Positions 44,713 to 46,769 of a DNA stretch of 64,000 nt are shown piece after piece (position 1 is the first letter of the stretch; each line of letters opens with the position of its first letter). The stretch comes from Candidatus Bathyarchaeia archaeon (lineage in GTDB: Archaea > Thermoproteota > Bathyarchaeia > Bathyarchaeales > Bathycorpusculaceae), in contig JAVZLH010000001.1 of NCBI GenBank assembly GCA_038883855.1, positions 96,001-160,000 of the forward strand, given 5' to 3'. The translations under genes were made by a program, and so were the position numbers. Under the pieces are notes generated by a model that saw only the letters and a list, made by a program, of their open reading frames with translations, did no database searches and was not told the origin of the DNA.

Positions 44713-45576
44713 GTGGTAACTTGTTTGTTTCCAAAGGTTCCAGACCAACACAAGCCAAACAAGCCCTTGGTTCCAACAGGCTTAGGCGTAGTATATGTGA
44801 TATTAAGCGCAGCTTACCTTTTCCTGTTGCATTATTCGGTTGACACTGAAGAGGCTTTAACATTAGCTGCTTGCATATTGTTCGGCGGCTTTATGGGATT
44901 GCTTGACGATTGGATGGATTTAAGGTGGCGCTACAAAGCTTTTTTCCCGTTGATAGCTGCGATTCCACTTATTTCTTTGGCGACGAAACTCGGGCTTCGT
45001 ACGTCTATGGCTATTCCATTTCTTGGAACAATAGTCTTTGATAACTACTACTATTTTATGATTATTCCATTAATTGTAACGGTGACCACTAACACTGTAA
45101 ACCAGCTAGGTGGGTTGAACGGGTTGGAAACTATTTGCCCCTCTATAATCTTAATTGGGCTAATTTTCCTTTCAGGCTCTAACGCTGTTCTTTTATACTT
45201 CCCATTAGTTGTTTGGCTCATGCTTGCCTTTTTTAATTTTCAAGGAAAAATTTTTGTTGGAAACTCCGGGTCCTTTGCCATAGGGTTAACGATAGCGGCT
45301 TTTGCGATAATTGCTGATTTGAAGTCATTTTTGTTAATTGCACTTTTACCATATATCCTAAACTCTTCTTTGATTCTGTTAAATTATTTCTTTTTCAGAA
45401 CTAAGGCAAACGTCTCCTTTGACGGAAAGAAACTTTTTTCCGATCATAGAAGAAGTCTCATTACTCTTATCACTTATCATCGTCCTCTTACTGAACGCAA
45501 AATAGTAATAATAATCTCTGTTTTGGTTTCGTTGTCAACTTTTGCCGCATCAATATTCCAGTTGTTTATGACTTAA
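44713..45576 (+). CDS. Polyprenyl-phosphate GlcNAc-1-P transferase (MraY/GPT family, AglH/ALG7-like)
   Basis: DQHKPNKPLVP, GLLDD, NTVNQLGGLNGLE, KIFVGNSG; directly after aglB. Confidence 0.85.
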   Translation: MVTCLFPKVPDQHKPNKPLVPTGLGVVYVILSAAYLFLLHYSVDTEEALTLAACILFGGFMGLLDDWMDLRWRYKAFFPLIAAIPLISLATKLGLRTSMAIPFLGTIVFDNYYYFMIIPLIVTVTTNTVNQLGGLNGLETICPSIILIGLIFLSGSNAVLLYFPLVVWLMLAFFNFQGKIFVGNSGSFAIGLTIAAFAIIADLKSFLLIALLPYILNSSLILLNYFFFRTKANVSFDGKKLFSDHRRSLITLITYHRPLTERKIVIIISVLVSLSTFAASIFQLFMT

Positions 45577-45655: not shown

Positions 45656-46130
45656 GTGCACCAATTTAATGTAATGTGGGAAATCACCAGTTTGGTAGGA
45701 GTTAAACTGGATGTAAGGGCGAAGACTGAAGCAATCAATTTTGATGTCAAAGCTAAACTGGAAGAAAGCGAGGAGCGCAAGAGCCAGATGGTTGTTGTAG
45801 GCTTCCGCCTTTTTCTGGCAACTAAACCAAGTATTGTTGAAGTTTGAAATTGAGGGCACCGCAACTTTAGCGGGAAAGGGACATGGAAATAAACGAAATG
45901 CTGGAAATCGACCCAGAAACAAAAGTGCCCTATGTCTTTCAAAAATTTACTAACATGCCTTTACAGCAATTATTTGCTTTCAACAATTTTAGGCGCCCTC
46001 CACCACCCGTGATTTGTTATTCTCTAAAAGACAAGACGCGTCTGGAGAAGAGGTAAGCGTGGAAACGGGTGAAACTGGAACTGTAGGCGTTGAGGTTGCA
46101 ACGGAGGAAGTAAGTGTTTCTGAAAAATAG
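45656..46130 (+). pseudogene. Multiply frameshifted conserved hypothetical gene (SecB-like fold suspected)
   Basis: Pieces INFDVKAKLEE..FRLFLATKPSIV / KFEIEGTATLAG / EMLEIDPETKVPYVFQK / LLSTILGA lie in changing frames. Confidence 0.55.
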
Positions 46131-46182
46131 TTTTCAGTAACATTTAATAGGAATAATTCTCTTCCGTTTAGAAACTGTTAAT

Positions 46183-46237
46183 GGCGGGTGAGTGGGCCTC
46201 CACCCGTTCCGCAATAAAACCCCGGAGTAGGAGGTGA
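46183..46237 (+). promoter_or_regulatory. Candidate riboswitch-like leader of the queT gene (hairpin, anti-SD, A-rich linker)
   Basis: Stem GGCGGGTG(46183-90)/CACCCGTT(46201-08), loop AGTGGGCCTC; CCTCC complementary to SD GGAGG(46230-34); AATAAAA linker; TATA-like TTTAATA at 46143. Confidence 0.5.
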
Positions 46238-46241
46238 AAAG

Positions 46242-46769
46242 TTGAAATTTGACAGTAGAGATTTAGCGTTGACAGCAGTTTTTGCCGCACTTTACGCTGC
46301 GCTGGTCATTCTTCTGGCGCCAATAAGTTTCGGGGTCTATCAAGTTAGGGTTGCTGACGCTTTACTTCCCTTATCAATGATATTTGGAGTTCCCATCGCC
46401 ATTGGGTCAAGCTTAGGTTGTTTGGTTGCGAATGTTTACGGCGGTTTAGGCGCCATCGACATTGTGGGCGGAGCGATTGCAAACTTTCTGGCATGTGTCT
46501 CAGCGTGGTATGTTGGCAGAAGTGGGTTTGCAAGTAGGCTTCTGGGAAGTTTTGTTGAAACACTGGTTATAACTGTAATTGTTGGTGGTTATTTGTCGTT
46601 AATATTTGATGTCCCCGTTGAGCTTGGATTGTTCGGCATTTTCGTCGGCTCTATCATTTCGATAAACATTTTAGGCTTTGCCCTTGAAGAAGTTTTACAA
46701 CGAAGCGGCGTATGGAAAAGGCACGCTGGAAAAGTTGCAACAAACATTGATGCGCATGGTACTACATGA
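46242..46769 (+). CDS. queT: QueT-family (ECF S-component) queuosine/archaeosine precursor transporter
   Basis: AVFAALYAAL...PISFG..QVRVADAL...LGCLVAN...G.IDIVGG; strong SD GGAGGTGA with TTG start. Confidence 0.85.
   Translation: MKFDSRDLALTAVFAALYAALVILLAPISFGVYQVRVADALLPLSMIFGVPIAIGSSLGCLVANVYGGLGAIDIVGGAIANFLACVSAWYVGRSGFASRLLGSFVETLVITVIVGGYLSLIFDVPVELGLFGIFVGSIISINILGFALEEVLQRSGVWKRHAGKVATNIDAHGTT

Follow-up and report, generated by a model that had tools for sequence, protein, structure and literature searches.

Here we describe a short RNA element upstream of the gene queT in an archaeal genome (Candidatus Bathyarchaeia archaeon; GenBank assembly GCA_038883855.1, contig JAVZLH010000001.1, positions 96,001 to 160,000 of the forward strand, this whole stretch of 64,000 nt being called the window, to which all coordinates below refer). 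Based on comparison with related loci, the segment 46182-46235 is likely to be a cis-acting riboswitch, aptamer and expression platform included, that turns translation off in response to a 7-deazaguanine and belongs to a new class, with the ligand being probably preQ0. That the element is a real, widespread and structured leader of queT we regard, from the same comparison, as practically certain. A preliminary description, made from the letters of the window, had proposed a preQ0/preQ1-type riboswitch built on an 8-bp stem; this reading is partly supported, being right in kind and wrong on the stem. The parts of the locus are as follows.

46143..46149, + strand: TATA-like box TTTAATA, putative queT promoter (sequence; TATA-like pattern over the aligned loci)
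46182..46187, + strand: P1, 5' strand (U-GGCGG) (covariation, alignment columns 7-12 with 46-51)
46188..46191, + strand: junction and lower P2, 5' side (G-U-G-A) (conservation, pair table)
46192..46203, + strand: upper P2 hairpin (GUGG / CCAC) with apical loop GCCU (covariation, loop pairing test)
46196-46201, + strand: pseudoknot strand GCCUCC, complementary to the Shine-Dalgarno (SD) sequence (loop:SD pairing test)
46204..46208, + strand: lower P2 and junction, 3' side (C-C-G-U-U), nearly invariant (conservation, pair table)
46209..46214, + strand: P1, 3' strand (CCGC-A-A; mostly CCGCC-A in relatives) (covariation)
46215..46225, + strand: linker (pseudoknot loop 3), UA, AAA-N-CCC (46217-46223), GG (conservation)
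46230..46235, + strand: SD sequence GGAGGU, 3' strand of the pseudoknot (loop:SD pairing test)
46242..46769, + strand: queT, the putatively regulated gene (Pfam PF06177)

The queT gene begins with TTG and encodes 175 amino acids (aa) that match Pfam PF06177 QueT with an E of 8.1e-27 and 94.7 bits. The GC fraction is 0.56-0.58 in 46165-46239 versus 0.24-0.34 in 46115-46189, where an AT-rich spacer lies upstream. It is noted that the sequence features from which the preliminary description had started are all present where it had placed them: besides TTTAATA, the stretch GGCGGGTG (46183-90) is able to pair with CACCCGTT (46201-08) by 6 Watson-Crick and 2 G-U pairs around a 10-nt loop, GGAGG (46230-34) is complementary to CCTCC (46197-46201), a further GGAG occurs at 46224-27 and AATAAAA at 46213-19, and the ATG at 46181 starts a frame of 18 codons that stops with TGA at 46235-37.

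Conservation and fold of the queT leader

QueT is present in 54 of 61 related genomes, and a pattern search found the same block of about 60 nt directly 5' of the start codon in 27 of 30 QueT loci of these genomes, with the QueT proteins of the fetched loci having 32-95% identity to that of the window. In two of the three exceptions (L017 and L018) the block precedes an upstream queT paralogue, and the third (L008) has a different leader. The covariance model R1, built from the 27 queT leaders as seeds, recovers a single true copy from the genome of the window, at 78.7 bits and E 6.7e-22; the runner-up, with 13.4 bits, is noise. With a cut-off of E <= 0.01, 95 of the 151 genomes sampled from the class (73 of 94 among the high-quality ones) have a match, mostly as a single copy per genome; two or three of the weakest matches are false, with the core missing, and the model overlooked at least one genuine diverged copy (G097, L267). 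In a sample of the phylum, R1 has matches in 29 of 151 genomes, 15 of which lie outside the class (by family, f44 9/15, f56 3/3, f60 2/2 and f64 one genome). Judged across genomes in this way, the queT leader block is, on the sequences compared, far beyond chance. A loose pattern (GCGGGT, a gap of 6-32 nt, then CCGTTCCGC) was set aside, nearly all its matches being chance ones in GC-rich bacteria; among the matches listed, the one true instance of the motif is in L034, a Bathyarchaeia metagenome-assembled genome.

The contigs of four hot-spring metagenome runs (X1, X2, X6, X7), mapped to this region, give a summed depth of 44-309 in the two bins of 46172-46239, of 0-12 in the six bins just upstream and of 18-28 in the next downstream bin, with the loose contig ends concentrated at 46178-46182. 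Since all four runs consist of contigs, they are blind to transcript starts, and the two that are labelled metatranscriptomic are flagged as probably DNA. The depth peak was rejected as a sign of expression; it implies that the motif is common to many co-occurring hot-spring organisms, which share exactly that block.

The fold was examined with a covariance-model alignment of 99 sequences (A5). With RNAalifold on the 27 seeds there was too little variation to choose a fold, and the choice was settled after adding the diverged matches. In the fold that covaries, P1 is formed by 46182-46187 and 46209-46214 and P2 by 46188-46195 and 46200-46207, with U46208 unpaired. Changes on both sides of the pair are present at 8 of its 14 pairs, amounting to 74 cells; of 500 shuffles none reaches this cell count or the covariation score and one reaches the pair count, while controls with slid partners give at most 21 double-change cells. 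In P1 the inner pair (columns 12/46) is G-C in 90 sequences and C-G in 9, and the second pair (columns 8/50) is GC in 67, AU in 18, GU in 5, UA in 3 and CG in 1. In upper P2 the second pair (columns 18/38) is UA in 73, GC in 9 and CG in 3, and columns 17/39 hold GC in 78, GU in 5, AU in 2 and UA in 2. Lower P2 is made up largely of fixed pairs: G.U in 95/99 at columns 13/44 with G-C in the other 4, U.G in 99/99 at columns 14/42 and G-C in 86/99 at columns 15/41; A46191 stands opposite C46204 (columns 16/40), where G-C is present in 27/99 and the position is unpaired in 72. The compensatory changes indicate that the RNA forms a 5-bp P1 (GGCGG/CCGCC) enclosing the interrupted hairpin P2, the upper part of which has 4 bp.

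This is the fold that the preliminary description had offered as its alternative (GCGG/CCGC enclosing GUGG/CCAC). By contrast, its preferred 8-bp stem (46183-90/46201-08) cannot be upheld as a conserved helix: it is pairable in 93% of the cells, which is due simply to base conservation, it has no pair with double changes, it is not above the shuffles, and the 9 sequences of the GGCGC...GCGCC type disrupt it. Single-sequence folding was rejected as a guide to the structure, because it gives no signal and favours this non-covarying stem.

Many bases of the core are nearly fixed. Identical in at least 97 of the 99 sequences are GCG of P1, G46188, U46189, C46204, G46206, U46208 and CGC of the P1 3' strand, and, in the linker, AAA (46217-19) and CCC (46221-23). 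The linker CCC is invariant even in L206, L239 and L240, which lack a G-rich ribosome-binding site, and this implies that it is not merely a second anti-SD; on these grounds the linker CCCC was rejected as the true anti-SD in its main role, though it could compete with the loop in the free state. By analogy, the invariant junction and linker positions would resemble the ligand pockets of small riboswitches.

Pairing of the loop with the ribosome-binding site

Because indels shift the loop and the SD sequence out of register in the alignment, the pseudoknot was examined by an alignment-free test, which looked in 97 sequences for the longest uninterrupted helix that apical P2 can form with the 3' region. 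With their own partners the helices have a mean length of 6.37, versus 5.60 +/- 0.08 with permuted partners (0/2000), and a duplex energy of -12.6 versus -10.8 kcal/mol (0/2000). The helix has at least 5 contiguous bp in 95 of the 97 sequences. The two strands change together, as in CCUCC:GGAGG, CCUCCC:GGGAGG, CCACC:GGUGG, CCCUC(U):(A)GAGGG, CCUUCC:GGAAGG, GCCCCC:GGGGGC, GCCCUCCU:AGGAGGGC and UCCGAC:GUCGGA. In the last type, present in L206, L239 and L240 and, by eye, in L207, the 3' partner is a non-canonical SD that abuts the start codon. In the window the duplex is formed between GCCUCC (46196-46201) and GGAGGU (46230-46235), having 6 bp and -9.0 kcal/mol.

Comparison of the loops with their partners indicates that the apical P2 loop pairs with the SD sequence 30 nt downstream, giving an H-type pseudoknot. 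The loop:SD pairing with an A-rich linker, as it had been proposed in the preliminary description, thus stands, including pairs that are not of the SD type. With the pseudoknot formed, loop 1 would have 2 nt (G46194, G46195) and loop 3 would have 17 nt (46213-46229), running along P1 and lower P2. Note also that C46200 and C46201 are common to the pseudoknot and to the top two P2 pairs, which covary little; it is plausible that the top of the hairpin and the pseudoknot are mutually alternative states.

Masking of the SD sequence by a loop requires no ligand, and it can be asked whether the leader works independently of any ligand: as an RNA thermometer, by damping translation constitutively or by affecting mRNA stability. 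Temperature sensing is conceivable in view of the window DNA being found mainly in hot-spring metagenome runs. For a thermometer, however, pairing suffices, and about 20 invariant unpaired or wobble positions would be unneeded, yet they are kept down to about 32% QueT identity; moreover, the element is tied to one gene family plus queC and not to heat-shock or general genes, and it has mostly one copy per genome. We hold a ligand-independent leader to be improbable.

Another explanation is that the block is conserved because it is coding, either as the upstream open reading frame (uORF) 46181-46237 or as an N-terminal extension of QueT. An ATG-started frame does exist in the window, but among the 99 sequences a start codon is present at the aligned site in 39 and ATG in 9, 1- and 2-base indels shift the frame, the peptides diverge after about 6 residues (...STRSAIK vs ...LPPVPPYK) and the stops vary. 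The coding explanation is refuted by this comparison of start codons and frames, retaining virtually no probability, and the 18-codon uORF that the preliminary description had pointed out is not conserved.

A narrow TATA-like hexamer pattern has a match in 53 of the 99 aligned upstream regions, and 46 of the 53 matches start 28-41 nt before the first base of P1, the distance in the window being 40 nt; many of the 46 non-matching regions have cttatta- or tttttaag-like boxes in the same place, as judged by eye. The TATA-like box noted earlier upstream of queT is found at a fixed distance. Archaeal TATA boxes lie about 25-30 nt before the start site, and from this spacing the transcript is predicted to start a few nt 5' of P1. 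A scan of the locus for bacterial promoters and terminators was set aside, the host being an archaeon.

Further upstream in the window, an inverted repeat (GTTTCTGAAAA / TTTTCAGTAAC, 46117-46141) ends 2 nt before the TATA-like box. It gave a spurious Rfam match to mir-3167, and similar sequences (...tttcag(t/c)aacatttaatag) occur before the motif in several related loci; the repeat could be an operator, the transcription factor B recognition element (BRE) region or the upstream gene's terminator. Between a GT4 glycosyltransferase gene (44713-45576) and queT, a gap of about 660 nt contains nothing but short open reading frames (ORFs) in different frames. At 45656-46131 there are ORFs of 63 aa and 57 aa without a Pfam match and a tail ending with TAG at 46129-31, and this segment may be a decayed gene.

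Downstream genes and the deazaguanine pathway

Among the 86 ORFs of 100 aa or more whose start lies at the 3' edge of a motif match, 84 match Pfam QueT. One of the two others (L167) is a wrong-frame call, with the frame 1567-2097 looking like QueT by eye. The second (L165, 1570-2265, in genome G108) encodes a 232-aa protein without a Pfam family that looks like a membrane protein by eye; its motif has 74.8 bits and is of the GGCGC/GCGCC type, the genome has no QueT match, and the protein may be an alternative transporter of the same ligand. Six motif loci fall outside this set: four (L014, L159, L166, L221) have QueT over the cut-off, L201 has a QueT fragment below the cut-off and L191 stops at a contig end. 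In the phylum sample QueT is present at 10 of 10 tested loci, nine of them outside the class.

Of the 151 class genomes, 40 carry QueC; by the coordinates, 29 of them have queC downstream of the motif-bearing queT on the same strand, within about 1.2 kb in 28 genomes and at 2.4 kb in one; the motif-queT-queC loci inspected were L247-L253 (G046, G116, G127, G052, G018, G194, G146). A second queT follows queC in G052 and G060. QueD (PTPS family) is present in 13 of the 151 class genomes and in none of the 29 with motif, queT and queC. In the window's genome, which is 85% complete, arcTGT is present (E 7.7e-85), no real QueC is found, only N-terminal matches of 24.5 and 21.2 bits that we interpret as different ATPases sharing this fold, and QueD is not found; with arcTGT and neither real QueC nor QueD, the organism must import a deazaguanine. 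From these gene associations and the pattern of queC and QueD it follows that the motif heads a deazaguanine salvage module, consisting of queT alone, as in the window, or of queT-queC. The arrangement of queT-queC without QueD suggests that QueT imports 7-carboxy-7-deazaguanine (CDG), which is converted by QueC to preQ0.

Beyond queT and queC the neighbouring genes are unrelated (THUMP methyltransferase, Na/H exchanger, metallo-beta-lactamase, nitroreductase, Dam methylase). This bears on the explanation that the element is an operator at which a trans-acting RNA-binding protein or small RNA represses queT translation, with the conserved unpaired bases being protein contacts. The invariant GU/GUU/AAA-N-CCC and the SD-masking pseudoknot would fit contacts with a protein and with a ligand alike. 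However, queT and queC apart, the motif is not accompanied by any conserved partner gene, the same core is kept across several classes of the phylum, and the small, compact form with an A-rich loop 3 is the anatomy of pseudoknot switches for small ligands, as these are described in a review (PMC11625349). An operator for a trans-acting factor is, in our judgement, unlikely.

Some queT genes without the motif have leaders of other kinds. L273 (150-310, in G054) and L262 (140-310, in G064) share a longer, different leader with the blocks GGCGGGTyG...TCCGCCkTTACC, which is P1-like without an inner hairpin, GGATGATGGG, GGGAAATC and CCGCAGAA; this leader has no Rfam match, and it could represent either a different RNA or a second form of the switch. 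In family f21 the motif-less queT genes (L258, L260, L261) lie within about 50-70 nt after a tRNA gene, with a tRNA match in L258, and in family f20 (L254-L257) they have short GC-rich leaders behind a cttttatgagg-like box. In L264 (141-196, - strand, in G066), upstream of a queT without the motif, the opposite strand carries a sub-threshold match to archaeal C/D-box small RNA (sRNA) families (sR47, 27.8 bits versus a gathering score of 40).

Proposed switch and its relation to known riboswitches

Based on the comparison above, we propose the following mechanism. A 7-deazaguanine would bind a core made of the invariant P1/P2 junction and the linker, and the binding would lock the pseudoknot, thereby concealing the SD sequence and stopping the production of the QueT importer and, where queC follows queT, of QueC as well. 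Without the ligand, C46200-C46201 would stay in the local P2 hairpin and the SD sequence would be free. The direction of regulation is proposed from end-product feedback. On the way to archaeosine, preQ0 is inserted into tRNA by arcTGT (PMC4770233 and PMC5372724). As QueT imports a deazaguanine and QueC makes preQ0, and as preQ0 is the archaeal end product, the OFF logic of feedback fits. Besides preQ0, which is probably the ligand, CDG, preQ1, archaeosine base and guanine are possible ones.

The element shows generic traits of riboswitches, being a conserved 5' leader with compensatory changes and being associated with the genes of one metabolic pathway. To our knowledge, few riboswitch classes are known in archaea. 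The thiamine pyrophosphate (TPP) and fluoride/crcB riboswitches occur in archaeal leaders and are classes shared with bacteria, whereas the present motif was found here in one archaeal phylum only and in no Rfam family. With Rfam 15 at the gathering scores the whole window gives only a tRNA and no preQ1 family, and in 46000-46400 nothing relevant, and no match to RF00522, appears at E <= 10; the preQ1-I, -II and -III models give no match at E <= 2 on 20 diverse homologous loci. In this the preliminary description is borne out: the element is most plausibly a translational switch that responds to a deazaguanine and is of an undescribed class. No published description of an archaeal preQ0/preQ1 or queT riboswitch was found in a search that lay outside supplements and in which some phrase queries were possibly uninformative. 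In a 2024 review (PMC11625349) queT is a target of all three bacterial preQ1 riboswitch classes and the phyla named for these classes are all bacterial, and the word 'archaea' is absent from its text and from that of PMC11602147.

The likeness to preQ1-I (RF00522) has to be weighed, since the layout given in the preliminary description, in which a stem of 8 bp with a loop of 10 nt is followed by an A-rich tail and the loop pairs with the SD sequence, would make the element a divergent member of that bacterial class. The two have in common a 5-bp P1, an A-rich 3' tail that forms loop 3, an H-type knot whose second helix touches the SD sequence, and translational control of queT, which is putative here (for the bacterial class, PMC11625349); both are also very small, with most bases conserved. 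The preQ1-I riboswitch is about 34 nt in size and the archaeal element about 54 nt, and inside the 'loop' of the archaeal P1 there is a complete interrupted hairpin, P2, whose apical loop is the pseudoknot strand. Moreover, directly 5' of the P1 3' strand preQ1-I has a specificity dinucleotide, UC in type I or AC in types II and III (same source), whereas this place is taken by UU in the window copy (46207-08) and in almost every one of the 99 sequences of the alignment, apart from 4 with CU and 2 with an inserted A; the invariant CCC in the linker is a further difference. With RF00522 giving no match in the scans above, the 8-bp stem showing no covariation and the preQ1 phyla named in the review being all bacterial, membership in preQ1-I is very improbable.

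The new-class reading compares with the other two classes as follows. The preQ1-II riboswitch, found in queT leaders of Bacillota, has an HLout pseudoknot with four pairing regions, a three-way-junction pocket and U-A-U triples, and preQ1-III has about 100 nt, five helices and an anti-SD loop that pairs with the SD sequence far from the pocket (both from PMC11625349 and PMC11602147). Like preQ1-II (RF01054; queT/COG4708 leaders), the archaeal motif occurs only before queT, has the SD sequence in the pseudoknot helix and would act by translational control only. Unlike it, the motif has no U-rich tract, no embedded P4 hairpin, no three-way junction and no model match, the helices found being two nested ones and one of the pseudoknot. 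Like preQ1-III (RF02680; Ruminococcaceae, metagenomes), it has a hairpin-loop anti-SD that pairs with the SD sequence and is associated with queT; the archaeal block, of about 60 nt, is about half the size, has a different consensus and gives no model match.

Several points weigh against the proposed switch. Taken alone, 46165-46250 of the window copy is no better folded than shuffled sequence (minimum free energy (MFE) -19.3 versus -19.8 +/- 3.1 kcal/mol, z +0.16, with 113/200 shuffles folding equally well), the nearest-neighbour model favours the 8-bp stem (-11.3 kcal/mol) over the covarying fold (-9.0), the nested MFE structure pairs the SD sequence with the linker CCCC and not with the loop, and in P1 the G46183 opposite A46213 is a mismatch. 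The related sequences are not independent, so that the shuffle statistics (such as 0 of 500 for the fold) overstate significance, and the core is so conserved that most positions yield no covariation. An anti-SD-like loop matches any SD sequence to some degree. QueT is present in 112 of the 151 class genomes and a motif match in 95, and in families f20 (QueT 7/7) and f21 (QueT 5/5) no sampled genome has the motif, which implies that QueT can do without it there. Finally, what has been said of the tertiary fold and the pocket consists of guesses. Note also, concerning P1, that UGGCGG combined with CCGCAA is present, among the aligned sequences, in the window copy only, and that the closest relative (L002) has CCGCCA where the window has CCGCAA.

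With these points considered, we lean, on the comparative evidence, towards the view that the motif represents an archaea-specific fourth class of 7-deazaguanine riboswitch, which senses preQ0 rather than preQ1, is common in the class of the window and occurs in several further lineages of the phylum, and controls, in organisms without QueD, a salvage by queT alone or by queT-queC. If this is true, many of these archaea would live on imported preQ0 or CDG for archaeosine, and the import of deazaguanines would be regulated by an RNA of about 54 nt. The arrangement of queT-queC without QueD points to a salvage of CDG, for which we met no description in the literature, no search having been aimed at that route. 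Being small, abundant and strongly conserved and having a clear genetic logic, the motif would be suited to structural study of how an RNA recognizes preQ0, and it could possibly provide a ligand-controlled expression switch for archaea, thermophiles included. Moreover, with QueD in 13 and QueC in 40 of the 151 class genomes, the motif may mark the dependence on deazaguanines in uncultured lineages.

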